A stretch of 64,000 bases of DNA from Candidatus Shapirobacteria bacterium (lineage in GTDB: Bacteria > Patescibacteriota > Microgenomatia > UBA12405): positions 16,676-80,675 of the forward strand of contig JBAZZE010000001.1 of the NCBI GenBank assembly GCA_041658955.1, written 5' to 3'. The notes below the pieces were generated by a model that saw only the letters and a list, made by a program, of their open reading frames with translations, made no database searches and was not told the origin of the DNA. This document shows positions 679-10,478 of the stretch, one piece after another. The position numbers were made by a program, and so were the translations under genes. The first letter of the stretch is position 1. Each line of letters begins with the position of its first letter.

Positions 679-706
679 TTGACAAAAAAATAATCTAACC
701 TATAAT
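679..706 (+). promoter_or_regulatory. Sigma-70-like promoter (TTGACA -16 nt- TATAAT)
   Basis: TTGACA at 679-684 and TATAAT at 701-706 with a 16-nt AT-rich spacer. It sits in the intergenic region upstream of the leader ORF, tRNA-Trp and trpB. Confidence 0.45.
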
Positions 707-716
707 TACAACAATT

Positions 717-788
717 ATGAAATCATTCGTCTCTCAAGCTTGGTGGCAAGTCCAAAGCCCAACCGCGGGAGATATTGATCTGTCATAA
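717..788 (+). CDS. Putative trp leader peptide (23 aa, MKSFVSQAWWQVQSPTAGDIDLS) with tandem Trp codons
   Basis: ATG at 717 lies about 11 nt after the -10 box. Codons 9 and 10 are TGG TGG (741-746). Stop TAA at 786-788, 27 nt before the terminator hairpin. Confidence 0.4.
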   Translation: MKSFVSQAWWQVQSPTAGDIDLS

Positions 789-814
789 GCCATTCTTTTT
801 TCCAAAATATCACA

Positions 815-836
815 CCCGCGCGAGCGGGTTTTTTGT
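815..836 (+). terminator. Intrinsic terminator / attenuator hairpin
   Basis: CCCGC-GCGA-GCGGG is a 5-bp all-GC stem with a GNRA loop (815-828), followed by TTTTTTGTTTT. The upstream CGCGGG (764-769) can pair with the left arm CCCGCG as an alternative antiterminator. Confidence 0.5.
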
Positions 837-858
837 TTTCTGGCACCTTTTTAAAAAT

Positions 859-929
859 AGGAATGTAGTTCAATGGTAGAGCTCCTGTCTCCAAAACAGG
901 CGATGATGGTTCGATTCCGTCCGTTCCTG
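859..929 (+). tRNA. tRNA-Trp (anticodon CCA)
   Basis: Hand-folded cloverleaf. Acceptor AGGAATG/CGTTCCT, D-arm GTTC-AATGGTA-GAGC, anticodon stem CCTGT/ACAGG with loop CTCCAAA, T-arm GATGG-TTCGATT-CCGTC. CCA is not encoded. Confidence 0.8.
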
Positions 930-1034
930 CTATGACCTTTATACATAAAATATTAGTTATTACGGCACCTAGTCGGTGGCGGATGTTTTGGCGAAGTACT
1001 TATTTTTCCTTTATATCTTTAAATTTAAATTCTT

Positions 1035-2225
1035 ATGAAAAATTATCAAAAACTTATCAAAAACGGTTATTTTGGACAGTACGGTGGGCGTTTTGTTCCA
1101 CCTCAACTTGAAGATGTCTTGAAACATCTCGAAGTTGAGTACCATAAAGCGATCAAAGATCCCCAGTTCAAAAAGGAGTTGACTTATTGTTATCACCATT
1201 ACGCCGGTCGTCCTAGTCCACTTTATTTTGCCAAGAGGCTAACCAAAGTCTGCAACGGTGCCCAAATATATTTAAAACGAGAAGACCTCAATCATACCGG
1301 CGCTCACAAGATAAATAATGCTTTAGGCCAAGCACTTTTGGCTCGTAGAATGGGCAAAACCAAGTTAATTGCTGAAACCGGAGCTGGTCAGCATGGTGTG
1401 GCCACAGCTACTGTTGCTGCCATCTTTGGCATGAAATGTGATGTCTATATGGGTCAACGTGACATGGACAATCAAAACATTAATGTCTATCGCATGAAAC
1501 TTCTAGGTGCCAATGTTATTCCGGTAACTGGAGGACAGAAGACTCTCAAAGATGCGGTTGATGCGGCTCTTATGGCCTACATCAAAGAATCTGATGCTTA
1601 TTATCTATTAGGTTCAGCAGTTGGTCCTCACCCATACCCCTCTATGGTTCGTGATTTCCAAAAAATAATTGGTCAGGAAGCCAAAAGACAATTCCGAAAA
1701 ACTAATTCTTCGCTACCTGACTATTTAGTGGCCTGTATTGGCGGAGGTTCAAATGCTATTGGACTTTTTTATCCATTTATATTCAACAAAAGTGTCAGAA
1801 TGATTGGGGTGGAACCAGCTGGACTTGGTGCTAAAAGTGGTCGTCATGGCTTATCTTTAGGACAAGGAAAAGTCGGTCAAATCCATGGATATAACTGTCT
1901 TGTCCTTCAGGATAAGGATGGTCATATCGCTGAATCGTATTCAGCCGCTTCTGGACTTGATTATCCCGGTGTCGGGCCTGAACTTTGTTATCTAAGGGAT
2001 ATCGGCCGTCTGGAAACAACTGGTATCACCGATGCTATGGCTGTTAGCGCCTTCAAGGCCTTGTCTCAATTGGAGGGAATAATTCCTGCTCTTGAGTCAG
2101 CTCATGCAATAGCTTATGCCATTGAATTGGCCAAAACGTTATCAAAAGAAAAAACCATCATCGTCAACCTCTCTGGCCGAGGTGATAAAGATGTAGTTAA
2201 CGTTTATCAAAATTTAATGAAGTAG
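1035..2225 (+). CDS. trpB: Tryptophan synthase beta subunit (TrpB1-type)
   Basis: Carries the PLP-lysine motif LNHTGAHKINNALGQALLARRMGK. The 396-aa length and overall layout are typical of TrpB. Confidence 0.9.
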   Translation: MKNYQKLIKNGYFGQYGGRFVPPQLEDVLKHLEVEYHKAIKDPQFKKELTYCYHHYAGRPSPLYFAKRLTKVCNGAQIYLKREDLNHTGAHKINNALGQALLARRMGKTKLIAETGAGQHGVATATVAAIFGMKCDVYMGQRDMDNQNINVYRMKLLGANVIPVTGGQKTLKDAVDAALMAYIKESDAYYLLGSAVGPHPYPSMVRDFQKIIGQEAKRQFRKTNSSLPDYLVACIGGGSNAIGLFYPFIFNKSVRMIGVEPAGLGAKSGRHGLSLGQGKVGQIHGYNCLVLQDKDGHIAESYSAASGLDYPGVGPELCYLRDIGRLETTGITDAMAVSAFKALSQLEGIIPALESAHAIAYAIELAKTLSKEKTIIVNLSGRGDKDVVNVYQNLMK

Positions 2226-2268: not shown

Positions 2269-3747
2269 ATGTTAAACTCAAATATAAATATGGATCCATT
2301 AATACAAAAAAATAACGAAATCTTAGTCAAACTCGGTATCGAGTTTACATCAATCGAGCATCCTCCTTTTAAGGAGATCTTCGATTGTATGCGTCACCTT
2401 GGCTTACCCATTTCTGAAGGTTTTTCTACTTTAGTTATGAAAGCAGACGATCAGTATGTCGCTATTATTCGCCGGGATGATTGTCAGCTCGATCTTGATC
2501 GTGCTTGTCAACTTATTGGGTGTAAAAAATTAAGTCTAGCTTCACCTTCGGAATTTGAAGCCCTAACCCACACACCTTCTGGTGCCGCTTTTGTTGTTAA
2601 TCCGGTTACCGCCACCTACTTGGATCAAAAACTTTTTGAAAAAGAATTTCTTATGGGTGGTTCAGGTAGTCTTTCGATTACCAATCGATACCGTTCAGCT
2701 GATCTTAAAAAAATTCCTGGTAGTAAAGTTGTTGATATTGCGACCCTTAAAGCTCGCAAGCGCATCTTAACTGGGGATACCCCTAGTGGTCGCCTCCATC
2801 TCGGACATTATGTTGGTACTCTTGAAAACCGTGTTCGTCTTCAGGATGAATATGAGACTTTCATTCTTTTGGCCAATGTTCATGCTTATGCCAATAATTA
2901 TCGCGACTCAGAGACTATTAATAAAAACGTCTACGAAGTGTTTTTAGACAACTTAGCAGTGGGTATCGATCCCAATAAATCTACAATTTATCTAGAATCT
3001 GGTATCCCAGAGACCATGGAACTTTATAGTTATTTTCTAACTATGGTTACTCATGCCCGTGCACTCCGAAACCCGTCCGTCAAAGAAGAAATTAAATATA
3101 AAAAAATAGACCCATCCATCGGCTTTATCGTCTATCCCGTACTTCAAGCTGCCGATATTCTCGGTTTTAATGCCAACTTGGTCCCGGTCGGTGAAGACCA
3201 GTCTCCAGTCATCGAACAAACTAGAGAAATTGCCCGTGACTTCAATAAAGCTTTTGGGACTACTTTCAATATTCCCGATGCTATGATTGGCCGAGTTCCT
3301 CGTCTGGTTGGTACCGATGGTCTTACTAAGATGAGCAAAAGTGGTGGCAATGCCATCCTTCTCTCTGATGATGAAGCGACTCTTAAGAAGAAAATTCAAG
3401 CATGTTATACCGATCCTCAACGGGTTCACGCCACCGATCCAGGAAGAGTTGAAGGTAACCCTGTATTCGAATATCATCGTGCATTTAATCCCAATAAAGA
3501 AGAAGTAGCCGATTTGGAAGCTCGTTATCTGGTTGGTAAGGTGGGGGATAAAGAAGTTAAAGACAAACTCTTTATCGCCCTTAATACCTTTTTGGAACCT
3601 ATTCGCGCTAAAAGGAAATATTATGAAGACAATCCCGATATTGCCAAACAGATTCTTATCGAAGGCACCAAAAGAGCCAGAACCATCGTCGCTTCAGTAA
3701 CTAGTGAAGTCCGCGAAAAAATGGCATTTAACAAGCTTCTAAGTTGA
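2269..3747 (+). CDS. trpS: Tryptophanyl-tRNA synthetase with an N-terminal YbaK/ProX-like (tRNA_edit) domain
   Basis: C-terminal class I aaRS signatures: HLGHYVG (HIGH) and KMSKS. The N-terminal ~165 aa matches the YbaK/ProX deacylase pattern (LDLDRACQLIGCKKLSLASPSEFEALTHTPSGAAFVVNP ... GGSGSLSI). Confidence 0.85.
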   Translation: MLNSNINMDPLIQKNNEILVKLGIEFTSIEHPPFKEIFDCMRHLGLPISEGFSTLVMKADDQYVAIIRRDDCQLDLDRACQLIGCKKLSLASPSEFEALTHTPSGAAFVVNPVTATYLDQKLFEKEFLMGGSGSLSITNRYRSADLKKIPGSKVVDIATLKARKRILTGDTPSGRLHLGHYVGTLENRVRLQDEYETFILLANVHAYANNYRDSETINKNVYEVFLDNLAVGIDPNKSTIYLESGIPETMELYSYFLTMVTHARALRNPSVKEEIKYKKIDPSIGFIVYPVLQAADILGFNANLVPVGEDQSPVIEQTREIARDFNKAFGTTFNIPDAMIGRVPRLVGTDGLTKMSKSGGNAILLSDDEATLKKKIQACYTDPQRVHATDPGRVEGNPVFEYHRAFNPNKEEVADLEARYLVGKVGDKEVKDKLFIALNTFLEPIRAKRKYYEDNPDIAKQILIEGTKRARTIVASVTSEVREKMAFNKLLS

Positions 3748-3751
3748 TCAT

Positions 3752-4612
3752 ATGAGTTGGCTAGTACTAACTATCCTTGGTATGTTTGCAGTCGCTACTG
3801 CCGATGTTAGTCAAAAAATTACTCTCAAAGGCCAGTCACCACTTAGTAGTATTACCAATAACTTCCTTGTCTGGAATGGTATTGGTGTTTTGGCTTTGAT
3901 CTATTTTTTACTTTCAGGGCAAAAATTTCCGGTACTGACACCAACCTTTTATTATCAATTTGCCCCCATGACAGTTCTTTATTTTCTCGGGGGAACTTTT
4001 TATTATCAAAGTTTTAAAAGTAAAAGTGTTTCTATCTCGGCAGTTCTGGCCACCATATCTTCAGTTATGACCACTGTTTTGGGTATATTTCTCTATGGTG
4101 AGAGTACTCATCCTTTAAAATTTCTGGGTTCAGCTTTTATTATCGTGGCAATTTTCATGGTTAATTTTCATAAGAATTCTCATTTTGATAAATATAACCT
4201 TTATGCCCTCTTGGGTGGAATTTTTTATGGTTTTGCTTATGCTCTCGACAAACATTTTGTCCTCAACTCAACTCCTGACTTTTATCAAATTGTTCTCTGT
4301 TTTGCAGTTGGTATGGCTAGCCTTATCTTTAGCCCAGCCAGAATCGTTAAAGAACTTAAGCATTTTCACCGAGGACTTCTAATCTCAATAATATCTTCAA
4401 CCTTCTTTTTCTTTCTCTATCAGAAGTTTTACTTTCTGGCTTATACTCGCGGCGGGGAGGTGGGTCGGATTGATGTCCTTAATAACACCACCATCTTTAT
4501 CGTTATTTTACTTGAGTACTTTTTACTAAAAGACAGGACAAATCTCCGACAAAAGATTCTTTCGGCAATAATAGCAGTTATCGGAGCAACTTTACTTTCT
4601 ATCGCAAACTAA
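3752..4612 (+). CDS. Membrane protein, EamA/DMT-type transporter-like (about 10 TM)
   Basis: Hydrophobicity pattern with two repeated 5-TM halves. No sharper motif. Confidence 0.45.
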   Translation: MSWLVLTILGMFAVATADVSQKITLKGQSPLSSITNNFLVWNGIGVLALIYFLLSGQKFPVLTPTFYYQFAPMTVLYFLGGTFYYQSFKSKSVSISAVLATISSVMTTVLGIFLYGESTHPLKFLGSAFIIVAIFMVNFHKNSHFDKYNLYALLGGIFYGFAYALDKHFVLNSTPDFYQIVLCFAVGMASLIFSPARIVKELKHFHRGLLISIISSTFFFFLYQKFYFLAYTRGGEVGRIDVLNNTTIFIVILLEYFLLKDRTNLRQKILSAIIAVIGATLLSIAN

Positions 4613-5147: not shown

Positions 5148-5221
5148 GGCAGGATAGCTCAGTTGGTTAGAGCATCGCATTCATAACGCGAAGGTCGCGG
5201 GTTCAAGTCCCGCTCCTGCTA
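5148..5221 (+). tRNA. tRNA with anticodon CAU (elongator Met or lysidine-Ile2)
   Basis: Acceptor GGCAGGA/TCCTGCT (1:72 is G:U), D-arm GCTC-AGTTGGTTA-GAGC, anticodon loop TTCATAA, T-arm GCGGG-TTCAAGT-CCCGC. The anticodon stem is not three G-C pairs and 11:24 is Y:R, so it is not the initiator. Confidence 0.75.
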
Positions 5222-5224
5222 CTA

Positions 5225-5298
5225 GGGCATGTAGCTCAGTCGGTTAGAGCACCGATCTTATAAGTCGGGGGTCCATGGTTCGAGTCCATGCATGCCTA
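5225..5298 (+). tRNA. tRNA-Ile (anticodon UAU)
   Basis: Acceptor GGGCATG/CATGCCT, D-arm GCTC-AGTCGGTTA-GAGC, anticodon stem CCGAT/GTCGG with loop CTTATAA (U33, then TAT, then A37), 5-nt variable loop, T-arm CATGG-TTCGAGT-CCATG. Confidence 0.7.
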
Positions 5299-5301
5299 CT
5301 T

Positions 5302-6573: not shown

Positions 6574-7440
6574 ATGAGTCAAATAACCATCGATGCTGCC
6601 CTCAATTTGTTTACTGGAGCGCTTGCCAAAAAAGGTAAGTCTACCAATACTATTGTAGCCTACAAGGGAGACATCAACCAGCTTATTAACTATCTTAAAA
6701 CCCAAGAGATCATTACCATAGATGGTATTTTGGCTAGCCACATTGAAGGCTTCAAAAAAGATTTAATTAATAACAACTATACTGCCAAATCAGTTTCTAG
6801 AAAATTAAATTCCATCAAAAACTTTTTCTCATTTTTAGTTTCTGAAGGTGTAATTACTAAGGATCCTTCCACCGAAGTTAAGCATCCAAAATACGAAAAT
6901 GATATTCCTAAGATTCTCAAACCATTAGAATATCGTTCACTTCGTGATGCTTGTCGCAATGATGTCCGTTCTACTGCTATTGTCGAACTCATGCTTCAAT
7001 CAGGACTTCGAATTAAAGAGATCGAAAACCTAAAATTAGAAAATATTCGCGAGAATGACATTTTCATCGAAAGCTATGAGAGTCACTCATCCCGTGTAGT
7101 TCCTTTAAACAATTCTGCTAAGACTGCTCTAAAAAAATACCTCGATGAAGGCCGTTACCAAACAAAAGCCAAGAACGTTTTTGTTACCAAGACTGGTCGT
7201 CATCTCTTAGCCCGTAATATCCGTAGTTTACTCAATCGTTACTTCGACAAAGCCGATATCAAAGGTGTCAAGGTCAACGACTTGAGAAATACCTTTATCG
7301 TTTTCCAACTAAAATCAGGCGTACCTATTGATGTCGTCTCTCAAGTTGTTGGACATAAGCGTATTTCCACTACCGAAAAATATCTTGAACTCATCGATTC
7401 CAAAGAAGAATCAAAGGGAATCAAGTTAAAAGAATTGTAA
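6574..7440 (+). CDS. Tyrosine recombinase, XerC/XerD/phage-integrase family
   Basis: N-terminal SAM-like domain. Catalytic residues present: R (GLRIKE), LRNTF, HKRISTTEKYLE (H-x-x-R ... Y). I placed the start at ATG 6574 (MSQITID) rather than 6493, which overlaps the upstream gene. Confidence 0.75.
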   Translation: MSQITIDAALNLFTGALAKKGKSTNTIVAYKGDINQLINYLKTQEIITIDGILASHIEGFKKDLINNNYTAKSVSRKLNSIKNFFSFLVSEGVITKDPSTEVKHPKYENDIPKILKPLEYRSLRDACRNDVRSTAIVELMLQSGLRIKEIENLKLENIRENDIFIESYESHSSRVVPLNNSAKTALKKYLDEGRYQTKAKNVFVTKTGRHLLARNIRSLLNRYFDKADIKGVKVNDLRNTFIVFQLKSGVPIDVVSQVVGHKRISTTEKYLELIDSKEESKGIKLKEL

Positions 7441-8144: not shown

Positions 8145-10478
8145 CTAAAGCTTTGCTCTCTTTCCAATCTCACTTTCGACAATTTCTCTAGGTCGTCCAT
8201 ACTTAAGTCCAGACAATTTTTTGATCATAGCTGCCAATTCTTTGTTTCCAGGTTTCTTAATTTCATCAGCTGTCACATTCAGTGAAAATGGAGGTTGGGG
8301 GATACCGTTAACCATGGTTTTTAGATAAGTGTGTCCGATTGGTAAGTTTAGTAAGTCGTGTTCATTAAATTCTGGTTTAAATTGGTTTACCAAAAATGAT
8401 GCGTCGGAAATACCCACCCGGAATGAACAGATCGAACCAACATTTCCAAACACAGCGTTTTTGATCTCATCGTCCATCTGGCTGATGAACTGATTTCCCA
8501 CCGTCAAATTCAAATGGTATTTTCTAGCCTCGCTCATGATTACTGCAAAGTCTTGAGTGGCAAAGTTCTGAAACTCATCGACATATAAGTAAAAATCTTT
8601 CCGAAGTGGCTCTGGGGTATCCTGTCGGCTCATGGCGGCGATCAATATTTTTGGAATCAAAACTAGTCCTAAGAATGCCGAATTTTCTTCTCCAATCGAT
8701 CCCTTAGCTAAGTTGATGATCAAAATTTTACCTTCATCCATCGCCGTTCTAAAGTTAAATGAGCTGGTCGATTGTCCGATGATGTTTCTCATCATGGTGT
8801 TAGTAATAAACCGCCCAAACTTTGAAACAATGTAGTCCAAAACCTCTGATTTATGGAACTCATTGGTATTGGCAATCTGGTCAGTCCAATAGCGCTTAAC
8901 CATCGGATCACTCACTTTTGGTAACAGTTGTTGGACAAATGACGGGTCAGTTAAACATCGAACAATTTCAATAAAAGTTGCCCCTGGTTCCGCCATGACA
9001 GTCAACATGATGTTTCGGATAGCATGTTCAAACCTAGGTCCGACGATACCTGTTTTATAAGGATCGTACAGTTTGTACATCAGGTTGATGATCGATGAGG
9101 TTACAAAATCTTTTTGATCTTCTCTCTCGCATTCCATGACATTAAAACCCATTGGTCGATCTACCATTCCTGGATCAAAATAAATTACATCCTCAATCCG
9201 CTCTGGTGGTATCCGTTCCAAAATCATTTCAAAAGTGTCATGGGGGTCGATAAAACAAACTCCCTTACCTGCCTTGATATCTTGAAGTGCCATGTTTGCC
9301 AAAAGCCATGACTTACCCACACCAGTTTGTCCGACGATATAAAAATGTCTTTGGCGATCTTTGGTCGTTACATGAAATTTTTTCTTAATGCCACGATAAT
9401 GATTTTCTCCAATATAAATTCCTTCATTTGGACTATCTGATGGCGCTGGTGCTGCTTTGGCTTTTAGCCAATAAATATTTGGTGTCTCAATTGTTTTGTT
9501 GGGAAAATGAAAAATCGAAGCTATCTCATCGGACGATAAAATTGTCTTTCCTTTGTGCCAATAAATGATTGGATACTTATATATAAAATCGTCTAAGAAA
9601 AATTTCTTAATCCAAATTTTTCGGCTAGAAAGTTTGTTCCAAGGTGACTCGTATTGACCAAACGTCGCCTTAATGTTCGACAGGTTCATCTTAGCTGTTT
9701 CTTCATTTGGCGCAAAAGATACTATTCGAATTGCTGTCTCAAATCCAACTTTACTTGATTTAACATCGATCGCCTCTAGCTGTCTCGCATCTACTTTGTA
9801 ACTAGCTTTTTCTGGGTTAGCTTCTGATTTTTTGGTACTAGATACAAATCCCTTACCAGCTTTGGCCCAAGATCCATCGGTTGGCGACAGTACTAATTGG
9901 ATAGCCATGGTTTCATCTTTACCAAGCTTGGACATAGCTGAAGTGATAGTAGACAGGGGATCCGTAGGTATGTCTTTATATGTTTTAAGTGGAAAATAGG
10001 GTATCTTTTTTATTCCCATCCAGGCATATTCGGCTTTACCTTCTTCAGGATAGATATTTGGTTCTTCTGCCTCCTGGACATCAGCACCGGCGTAGACGCT
10101 ATAAATTTGTTTTTCAATAAAATCCTGTGTCTTACGAGGGATACAAATATAAAATTTTATATCCTCGCTAGTACCGATTAGTTCTAATGACACACTTGGT
10201 TGGGCTTGAAATCTTTGCAAAAACTTAAACTTAGCACTCTTGTATAAACTAGCTAAAGACCCAATAATTTGCTCCATCGCATCAACCTTTATTTCATTCT
10301 CTTCAGGAACTGCCACCAACAAAGTGACCATCTCCAGTGACTTTTCTTCCCTATCTTTCCACTTATACCACAGTACAAACGCTGCAGTTAAAGCCCACAA
10401 CAACACTAATACCATTACAGTGATCATCAGCATCAACATTGCGTTGGTTGCAAACGCGATCATTATATCAGGGGTCAT
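8145..10478 (-). CDS. Membrane-anchored VirB4/TraG-like P-loop ATPase (DUF87/HerA-FtsK superfamily)
   Basis: Two N-terminal TM helices, Walker A GQTGVGKSW and Walker B LYVDEFQNF. The 777-aa size matches type IV secretion and conjugation ATPases. Confidence 0.6.
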   Translation of the reverse strand: MTPDIMIAFATNAMLMLMITVMVLVLLWALTAAFVLWYKWKDREEKSLEMVTLLVAVPEENEIKVDAMEQIIGSLASLYKSAKFKFLQRFQAQPSVSLELIGTSEDIKFYICIPRKTQDFIEKQIYSVYAGADVQEAEEPNIYPEEGKAEYAWMGIKKIPYFPLKTYKDIPTDPLSTITSAMSKLGKDETMAIQLVLSPTDGSWAKAGKGFVSSTKKSEANPEKASYKVDARQLEAIDVKSSKVGFETAIRIVSFAPNEETAKMNLSNIKATFGQYESPWNKLSSRKIWIKKFFLDDFIYKYPIIYWHKGKTILSSDEIASIFHFPNKTIETPNIYWLKAKAAPAPSDSPNEGIYIGENHYRGIKKKFHVTTKDRQRHFYIVGQTGVGKSWLLANMALQDIKAGKGVCFIDPHDTFEMILERIPPERIEDVIYFDPGMVDRPMGFNVMECEREDQKDFVTSSIINLMYKLYDPYKTGIVGPRFEHAIRNIMLTVMAEPGATFIEIVRCLTDPSFVQQLLPKVSDPMVKRYWTDQIANTNEFHKSEVLDYIVSKFGRFITNTMMRNIIGQSTSSFNFRTAMDEGKILIINLAKGSIGEENSAFLGLVLIPKILIAAMSRQDTPEPLRKDFYLYVDEFQNFATQDFAVIMSEARKYHLNLTVGNQFISQMDDEIKNAVFGNVGSICSFRVGISDASFLVNQFKPEFNEHDLLNLPIGHTYLKTMVNGIPQPPFSLNVTADEIKKPGNKELAAMIKKLSGLKYGRPREIVESEIGKRAKL

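Follow-up and report, generated by a model that had tools for sequence, protein, structure and literature searches.

Near the start of a 64,000-nucleotide stretch of DNA from a Candidatus Shapirobacteria bacterium (assembly GCA_041658955.1, contig JBAZZE010000001.1, positions 16,676 to 80,675; the whole stretch is hereafter "the window"), a short leader with two consecutive tryptophan codons precedes genes for tRNA-Trp, a tryptophan synthase beta subunit (trpB), and tryptophanyl-tRNA synthetase (TrpRS, encoded by trpS). Evidence from sequence, conservation, and folding—all of it computational—makes it likely that this leader is a ribosome-mediated (leader-peptide) transcription attenuator sensing charged tRNA-Trp. 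A preliminary description, made from the letters of the same DNA, had proposed attenuation, and that interpretation now gains computational support from a folding switch, from conservation among relatives, and from compensatory base changes. The balance also tips, if modestly, towards the leader belonging to an undescribed and widespread family of leaderless Trp-codon attenuators in Microgenomates/Patescibacteria, with tRNA-Trp as the first product, that would autoregulate this tRNA together with TrpRS and an indole-salvaging TrpB. Cis-regulation in bacteria of the candidate phyla radiation (CPR)/Patescibacteria is little characterized, and the organisms are uncultivated. In the literature searched, which was incomplete in coverage and is no proof of novelty, we found neither an attenuator in Patescibacteria nor a leader-peptide attenuator that directly gates a tRNA gene. 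The novelty of the window leader is its phylum, its leaderless sensor open reading frame (ORF), and a tRNA gene as the first regulated product; the attenuation logic itself is classical.

Layout and predicted folding of the leader

The leader lies in DNA of low GC content (38% for the window), downstream of genes that are all on the minus strand (433-666, 152-367, and the start of the L25 gene at 5-76); the terminator therefore ends no upstream plus-strand gene. The promoter, previously called near-consensus, matches the sigma-70 consensus at 12/12 positions and is the sole such match in the first 6.5 kb scanned; transcription would start near position 713. The 23-codon ORF with tandem Trp codons is present as first described, as is a strong hairpin followed by a U-tract, although the stem itself occupies 814-829 (the span 815-836 given before takes in part of the U-tract) and begins 25 nucleotides (nt), not 27, after the stop codon. 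The proposed pairing of a CGCGGG segment with the left arm of the terminator also holds at the sequence level, positions 764-769 being the exact complement of CCCGCG at 815-820. The elements of the leader are as follows.

679..706, plus strand: promoter, with -35 TTGACA at 679-684, a spacer of 16 nt, and -10 TATAAT at 701-706
717..788, plus strand: leader ORF MKSFVSQAWWQVQSPTAGDIDLS, ATG start, 23 codons, with homologous ORFs in 16 distinct leaders
741..746, plus strand: putative sensor codons TGG TGG (tandem Trp), read from the sequence, within the leader ORF
729..747, plus strand: region 1, the 5' strand of a predicted anti-antiterminator helix, which includes the Trp codons (minimum free energy folds, RNAalifold, covariation)
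757..773, plus strand: region 2, predicted partner of either region 1 or the terminator left arm, with the conserved box CGCGGGAG at 764-771 (folding, conservation)
771..776, plus strand: antiterminator extension GAUAUU, predicted to pair with AAUAUC at 806-811 (stalled-state minimum free energy fold)
806..811, plus strand: AAUAUC, the 3' partner of that extension (same fold)
814..829, plus strand: terminator hairpin, regions 3 and 4, ACCCGC-GCGA-GCGGGU with a GCGA loop; -11.4 kcal/mol for the hairpin alone
830..840 (end approximate), plus strand: terminator U-tract TTTTTTGTTTT, read from the sequence

Folded as free RNA, the window leader adopts as its minimum free energy (MFE) structure a helix between regions 1 and 2 together with the terminator (z = -2.5), and pairing of 729-735 with 767-773 was recovered by RNAalifold. 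This 1:2 anti-antiterminator helix, absent from the preliminary description, takes in the Trp codons. We modeled a stalled ribosome by masking position 1 through 12 nt beyond the Trp codon in the A site. With that footprint masked, the MFE structure flips to the antiterminator, in which 764-769 pairs with 815-820, 771-776 with 806-811, and 754-760 with the right arm and U-tract, bearing out the idea that terminator and antiterminator are mutually exclusive. In energy terms, the terminator form is favored in free RNA (-29.1 vs -26.5 kcal/mol for the antiterminator form) and the antiterminator form when the ribosome is stalled at the Trp codons (-21.7/-19.4 vs -17.6 kcal/mol); with the ribosome at the stop codon, values range by footprint size from -20.2 to -25.4 kcal/mol for the terminator and from -21.1 to -21.7 kcal/mol for the antiterminator.

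The same behavior—a terminator when the RNA is free, lost when the ribosome is stalled—was predicted for 10 of the 16 family leaders described below and for three distant analogues (loci L035, L030, and L025). Dinucleotide shuffling of the segment from footprint to terminator, carried out for 11 leaders, reproduced the switch in 0-2.3% of shuffles for those leaders that do switch. Full three-state behavior, with the terminator also present when the ribosome is at the stop codon, was seen for L114, L122, L121, and the three analogues.

These structures suggest the following mechanism. Transcription would begin some 4 nt upstream of the ATG (717), and translation would initiate at an AUG with little or no leader sequence ahead of it. 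A shortage of Trp-tRNA(Trp) would make the ribosome stall at UGG UGG (741-746) and occupy region 1, leaving region 2 with its box free to pair with CCCGCG at 815-820, a pairing extended by GAUAUU and AAUAUC; the terminator would be blocked, and RNA polymerase would continue into tRNA-Trp, trpB, the ybaK-trpS fusion gene, and probably an EamA-family gene. When Trp-tRNA(Trp) is plentiful, or when the leader is not translated, region 2 would be covered by the ribosome or paired again with region 1, and the hairpin at 814-829 with its U-tract would terminate transcription. With a first product that reads the sensor codons, followed by one enzyme that forms Trp from indole and another that charges the tRNA, the arrangement would constitute direct negative feedback on the supply of Trp-tRNA(Trp). 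Expression of the tRNA has no evident route other than readthrough, since the gene begins 19 nt past the U-tract and a promoter scan found no plus-strand promoter-like site between 707 and 2869. More generally, the distance from U-tract to tRNA is 5-24 nt in the window, L099, L114, and L121, and so leaves no room for a separate promoter in these four.

How the leader ORF might be translated is indicated by its spacing from the promoter, which suggests a leaderless start that the preliminary description did not mention. No sequence resembling a Shine-Dalgarno (SD) site occurs in the 16 nt before the ATG in any of the 16 leaders, and 15 of them have a -10 box at a distance of 6-10 nt from the ATG. 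An extended -10 (TGnTAnAAT) ends 6-7 nt ahead of the ATG in 12 leaders, which places the transcription start on or beside the A of the AUG; L093 and L121 share the promoter of the window, with both -35 and -10, and its 10-nt gap to the ATG, which implies a 5' untranslated region (UTR) of 3-4 nt in these three. The remaining leader, L087b, has no recognizable promoter and follows directly after an upstream ORF. Insertions and deletions within the ORF are multiples of three. These features fit a translated ORF with leaderless or near-leaderless initiation; the proposed mechanism would further entail coupling of transcription and translation and a response to tryptophan.

Conservation and covariation across related leaders

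The closest TrpRS relatives of the window protein come from metagenome-assembled genomes labeled Candidatus Shapirobacteria, Microgenomates, or Patescibacteria. Homologous leaders were drawn from three sources. A TrpRS search of a genome collection yielded L001 (Shapirobacteria CG06), with the homologous peptide MLSKTVSQIWWW... ahead of a partly masked tRNA-Trp; contigs encoding related YbaK-TrpRS proteins supplied unmasked copies and new variants; and scanning metagenomes for TCTNNANNNTGGTGG-N12-CC-N4-GCGGGAG brought up 23 loci, 14 of them true leaders and the remainder GC-rich chance hits plus one CRISPR array. The result was 16 distinct family leaders on related Shapirobacteria/Microgenomates contigs, every one with in-frame Trp codons and a terminator. 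Their peptides are listed here.

Window: MKSFVSQAWWQVQSPTAGDIDLS
L093: ..QVTNP.., a strain variant of the window
L121: MKLFVSQTWWQVLSPTAGDIDLS
L090: MTKLIVSQAWWCASNPTAGDINRS
L092: MTKNISLSWWRNLNPTAGDVDRS
L099: MKLLVSRSWWCNSNPTAGDVNLS
L105: MLINVSQSWWRSNQPNAGDINR
L108: MTNLLISTTWWRNHCPTAGDINLA
L085: MKLNISTIWWRESSPSAGDINLS
L081 and L087a: ML SK(T/I)(V/I)SQIWWWNNKPQAGGMVTA
L118: MLSKTVSQIWWQFWSEAGEVLVA
L114: MFNIFKTWWHFN, then stop (short ORF)
L122: MTQLKNSQIWWQNC, then stop (short ORF)
L002: MTSKFSGNSWQYLQPEAGVFCWR
L087b: MTKLIIFQTWRHTTNLSTGDIFWR

In-frame WW or WWW occurs in 14 of the 16 leaders, and the box reads GCGGGAG in 15 and ACGGGGG in the other. The next gene is tRNA-Trp after 12 leaders and trpS directly after L118 and L002; in L122 a racemase-like gene comes between the leader and trpS. 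Thus 15 of 16 stand upstream of tRNA-Trp or trpS, the exception being L092, which precedes a 78-codon ORF of no assigned function. The shared gene order is L25 on the minus strand, leader, tRNA-Trp, one or more variable genes, and TrpRS, and the window is unusual in having trpB in the variable slot. The same design recurs in three leaders of unrelated sequence from more distant Microgenomates: L035 (Daviesbacteria), where METLKIISKYWYYANN is followed by a terminator and tRNA-Trp, and L030 and L025, where MAVDLKSLQNFWFFDFFTR and MKLKNNFWWCKTN, respectively, lie upstream of a trpS operon.

A separate sub-type, at 5858-5970 of L002 and 9463-9583 of L087, has single, separated W codons and ends in W-R-stop (MTSKFSGNSWQYLQPEAGVFCWR and MTKLIIFQTWRHTTNLSTGDIFWR). 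These two leaders, which do not show a stall-dependent MFE switch, may be degenerate or may act in a different mode.

Comparison with relatives, which had been suggested as a check, thus found both Trp codons and hairpins conserved across the 16 leaders, and it also revealed compensatory changes in the 1:2 helix and the terminator. A covariance model (R1) built from 14 leaders, with the 1:2 helix and the terminator as its structure, recovers all members (E values of 1e-10 to 1e-19), with no other convincing match in 0.93 Mb. Across the model-derived alignment, 89% of the cells of these two elements are paired, vs 33-63% with slid partners, and 8 of 15 pairs have changes on both sides; the observed values were reached by none of 500 shuffles. 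Taken singly, the 1:2 helix is 90% paired with three pairs changed on both sides, and five of the six pairs of the terminator stem show both-side changes across relatives. RNAalifold on a MAFFT alignment had missed the terminator owing to register shifts, a fault cured by re-alignment with the covariance model.

The relation between box and terminator is conserved even as the terminator itself changes. Stems vary by lineage (CCCGCG, CTCCCG(C), and TCCCGC), yet perfect complementarity of at least 6 nt to CGCGGGAGAT, in or beside the left arm, is found in 11 of 15 leader terminators vs 2 of 24 other terminators from the same loci. L121 is a case in point: its peptide is nearly that of the window and its stem has been re-registered (ACTCCCG/CGGGAGT vs ACCCGC/GCGGGT in the window), and each stem retains complementarity to the box. 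Two leaders, L114 and L122, have an ORF that ends 2-3 codons past WW, just 5' of the box, and nevertheless keep GCGGGAG(AUAUUAA). Since these two leaders keep the box outside the ORF, the box is an RNA element rather than a peptide motif. The same two leaders argue against reading the P-x-A-G-D-I conservation of the peptides as the sign of an arrest peptide, the conservation being at the RNA level.

How often such a unit would arise by chance depends on how much of it is counted. Contrary to the preliminary view that tandem Trp codons in so short an ORF are very improbable, WW alone is not rare, occurring in 6 of 817 ATG-initiated ORFs of 10-40 codons in the window; at a Trp frequency of 1.14%, the probability of WW in a 22-codon ORF is about 0.003. 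What is rare, and conserved, is the combination of WW, short ORF, and terminator. A scan of both strands of 1.24 Mb of fetched loci for ATG ORFs of at most 40 codons with WW and a terminator starting 20-130 nt past it gave only five hits outside the leader family, at four distinct loci (L009, L025, L029, and the minus strand of L085/L086), and the L025 hit itself lies 300 nt upstream of trpS.

Competing explanations and known systems

Several observations weigh against attenuation by a translating ribosome. An essential tRNA placed behind a terminator needs substantial basal readthrough. For the window leader, whose stop codon comes after the box, the state with the ribosome at the stop codon is thermodynamically ambiguous; its ATG is 10 nt rather than 6-7 nt past the -10, and a 5' UTR of 3-4 nt that carries no SD may initiate poorly. 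Six of the 16 leaders show no MFE switch, namely L105, L118, and L087b, which always form the terminator, and L092, L081, and L002, which always form the antiterminator; L002 and L087b moreover have two separate single Trp codons each in place of a tandem. The covariation alignment comes from a covariance model fitted to the structure under test. As for the antiterminator, its core (GCGGG/CCCGC) is near-invariant and so shows no covariation, and the whole antiterminator, examined in fixed columns, is 62.3% paired vs a shuffle mean of 62.0%, which lends its flanking helices no support. These flanking helices change register between lineages: pairings equivalent to the GAUAUU-type extension but shifted in register can be found by eye in L085, L099, L105, and L108, and are not significant in fixed columns.

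One alternative dispenses with translation altogether. The leader could act as a cis-regulatory RNA that is never translated, or as a constitutive terminator that leaks, with a protein, tRNA, or metabolite as its ligand, in which case UGGUGG and the box would be RNA contacts and the ORF incidental. Selection on GCGGGAG at the RNA level in L114 and L122, the lack of SD sites, and the presence in the distant loci L112 and L116 of a different structured leader in the same place, with no WW ORF, all fit this explanation. We nonetheless judge it improbable: the ATG is fixed 6-10 nt past the -10 in 15 of 16 leaders, as in leaderless mRNAs, every leader has its Trp codons in the frame set by that ATG, indels in the ORF preserve this frame, the fold flips upon masking a footprint placed exactly at the Trp codons, and the RNA, at only about 120 nt, is too short for a T-box and has no T-box or riboswitch hit in Rfam.

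A second alternative accepts that the ORF is translated and gates the terminator, and would have it report general translation capacity or coupling (ribosome availability, guanosine tetraphosphate [ppGpp]) rather than Trp-tRNA. The antiterminator would indeed be favored whenever the leader ribosome slows down before it reaches the box, and the two family members with single Trp codons only are in keeping with a less specific signal. Such an account has little probability in our view, given that the Trp codons are enriched over background and placed where a stall uncovers region 2, that all but two of the leaders keep WW or WWW, that the genes downstream are Trp-specific in 15 of 16 cases (tRNA-Trp, trpS, or trpB), and that in L025, L030, and L035 leaders with WW or W, seemingly of independent origin, lie ahead of trpS or tRNA-Trp.

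Still less credible is a reading in which the leader peptide arrests the ribosome as TnaC does, by sensing free tryptophan in the exit tunnel, with the operon induced when Trp is high. Most members with a long ORF do show apparent conservation beyond WW (P-x-A-G-D-I-N/D-x-S), but the peptides of L114 and L122 are cut to 12-14 residues and their "AGDI" nucleotides are kept as non-coding RNA, the terminator is intrinsic and not Rho-dependent, and induction of tRNA-Trp, TrpB, and TrpRS by excess Trp would make little physiological sense. Finally, chance juxtaposition of an ordinary promoter, a spurious short ORF, and a terminator, for which only the frequency of WW in short ORFs of the window speaks, is effectively refuted by conservation of the whole unit across 16 distinct sequences, together with its covariation and structural switch, and by the absence of any upstream plus-strand gene in need of a terminator.

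As a probable Trp-codon attenuator, the window leader recalls the E. coli-type trpL (Rfam RF00513, Trp_leader), with which it shares a short ORF with tandem UGG, the logic of 1:2 pairing, 2:3 antiterminator, and 3:4 intrinsic terminator, and the freeing of segment 2 when the ribosome stalls on the Trp codons. Both the WW codons and the terminator of the window can be aligned to the Rfam model, at 19.7 bits (E = 2.4 over 6.5 kb, 0.07 over 191 nt), which falls short of the gathering score of 41, and the window leader is thus not a member of RF00513; no other Rfam family matched it. The two differ in that the window leader is predicted to be leaderless and has no SD, that its host belongs to the Patescibacteria and those of trpL to the Proteobacteria, that its stop codon comes after segment 2 (in L114 and L122 the order is E. 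coli-like), and that the genes under its control would be tRNA-Trp, trpB, and trpS instead of trpEDCBA.

T-box riboswitches of trpS and trp genes in Firmicutes are alike in input (charged vs uncharged tRNA-Trp), in output (terminator or antiterminator), and in the type of target gene. A T-box, however, binds tRNA directly, independently of translation, and has a length of at least about 200 nt, a Stem I, and a specifier loop; no T-box match was found in the window at E values up to 10 with Rfam, nor in the relatives searched. TnaC of the tna operon likewise controls downstream transcription through a short Trp-containing leader peptide. It senses free Trp via the nascent peptide and blocks Rho, whereas in the present family the C-terminus of the peptide is dispensable (L114, L122) and the terminator intrinsic.

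Leader-peptide attenuators upstream of aminoacyl-tRNA synthetase genes have precedents, being predicted for trpS and leuS in Streptomyces and known for pheST (PMC1262725). The preliminary description had called it unusual to place a tRNA gene and trpS under a Trp attenuator; this stands for the tRNA gene, and for the phylum, but not for trpS. These systems share with the window a design in which a leader peptide with cognate codons and a terminator stand ahead of the synthetase gene, so that the level of charged tRNA would set charging capacity, and differ from it in that here the tRNA gene comes first, the synthetase is fused to YbaK, trpB is included, and the phylum is another. Leaderless short-ORF attenuators with polycysteine codons have been described in mycobacteria (bioRxiv 10.1101/834739), and they resemble the arrangement proposed for the window in having a sensor ORF at the 5' end of a leaderless mRNA, cognate codons, and control of a downstream operon. 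By comparison, the window leader involves a different amino acid and phylum and has an evident canonical pair of intrinsic terminator and antiterminator.

If the attenuator is real, it would provide indirect evidence for transcription-translation coupling and leaderless 70S initiation in CPR bacteria, and would mark the supply of Trp-tRNA(Trp)—through the tRNA, the synthetase, and a stand-alone TrpB using indole and serine—as a regulated bottleneck in reduced genomes. Its immediate product would be the very tRNA that reads its sensor codons, a very short feedback loop. The covariance model and the sequence signature can be used to annotate such short ORFs, which go unannotated, in metagenomes.

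Genes behind the leader and neighboring features

The genes expected downstream from the preliminary description, tRNA-Trp followed by a trpB-trpS pair, are all present, with one addition that had gone unnoticed: the synthetase carries an N-terminal YbaK/tRNA_edit domain.

859..930, plus strand: tRNA-Trp(CCA), discriminator G73, CCA not encoded (ARAGORN; Rfam tRNA, 63.2 bits)
1035..2225, plus strand: trpB, tryptophan synthase beta (PF00291; TIGR00263, 569 bits vs a cut-off of 392)
2269..3747, plus strand: trpS, N-terminal YbaK/tRNA_edit domain fused to TrpRS (PF04073 and PF00579; TIGR00233, 269 bits)
3752..4612, plus strand: EamA-family (EamA/DMT) transporter (PF00892), starting 5 nt past trpS

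A tblastn search with TrpA found no trpA in the 64-kb window, and the stand-alone trpB suggests that Trp is made solely through salvage of indole plus serine. The YbaK-type fusion is present in about 50 of the 120 TrpRS clusters listed (90% identity), some with an extra B3_4 domain. The PF04073 domain on TrpRS is of the trans-editing type; to our knowledge, TrpRS is not known to have an editing domain. The EamA gene is possibly the last gene of the unit, which we infer to be co-transcribed; adjacency of trpS and EamA was also recorded by Pfam hits in L121 and on the P0009 contig, and in L090 a 290-codon ORF after trpS resembles the window EamA protein by eye. Speculatively, a transporter in the same operon could carry tryptophan or indole.

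Between the trpB stop and the trpS ATG, at 2233-2258, lies a GC hairpin of 11 bp (CUCCCCCUCCU/GGGGAGGGGGA; -23.4 kcal/mol, z = -3.8) with no U-tract, whose 3' arm contains the sole SD-like GGAGG upstream of trpS. It may control translation of trpS or serve as a processing or stability element.

Where the window has trpB, relatives carry a 319-codon ORF and a second TrpRS paralogue of 388 amino acids (L081 3788-4954, L085 7692-8858, and L087 8300-9466; TIGR00233, 203 bits), whose best match is the PRK12285 group, which we take to be of archaeal type. L087 has two tRNA-Trp genes, at 7269-7344 and 9601-9672, each behind its own leader; one type is 76 nt long with A73 and an encoded CCA, the other 72 nt with G73. 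We do not claim that these two tRNA types are paired with the two TrpRS paralogues, as L099 has A73 but only YbaK-TrpRS in the locus fetched.

An ORF of 437-474 codons recurs between tRNA-Trp and TrpRS in several Microgenomates (L099 3394-4707, L108 1239-1808, L112 6676-7989, L114 6560-7984, and L035 2906-4276) and presumably belongs to the Trp-regulated unit. The L099 protein gave no Pfam hit when scanned, and none is on record for L112 or L114; visual comparison suggests a likeness among the N-termini of the proteins from L099, L108, and L035.

At the position equivalent to the leader, L112 (6250-6600) and L116 (5090-5390), whose TrpRS proteins are 55-66% identical, have in common another structured and conserved leader. 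It spans about 300 nt, contains GGUGGCA motifs and two hairpins resembling terminators, and lies ahead of an ORF and then YbaK-TrpRS. The likeness of these leaders to a T-box, noticed by eye, was rejected when Rfam returned nothing for the T-box, whether at the gathering threshold or at E values up to 5; no other Rfam match was found for these leaders, and they are possibly an undescribed RNA element.

Two further observations concern the surroundings. In the gap between called genes at 15250-15482 of L085, a related Microgenomates genome, there is a match to a group I intron (Rfam RF00028, 78.6 bits). In the window, at 5148-5299, tRNA-Met(CAU) is followed after 2 nt by a tRNA-Ile with the anticodon UAU, which is uncommon in bacteria, and the same pair was found again in most of the related loci examined (L085-L088, L118-L121).

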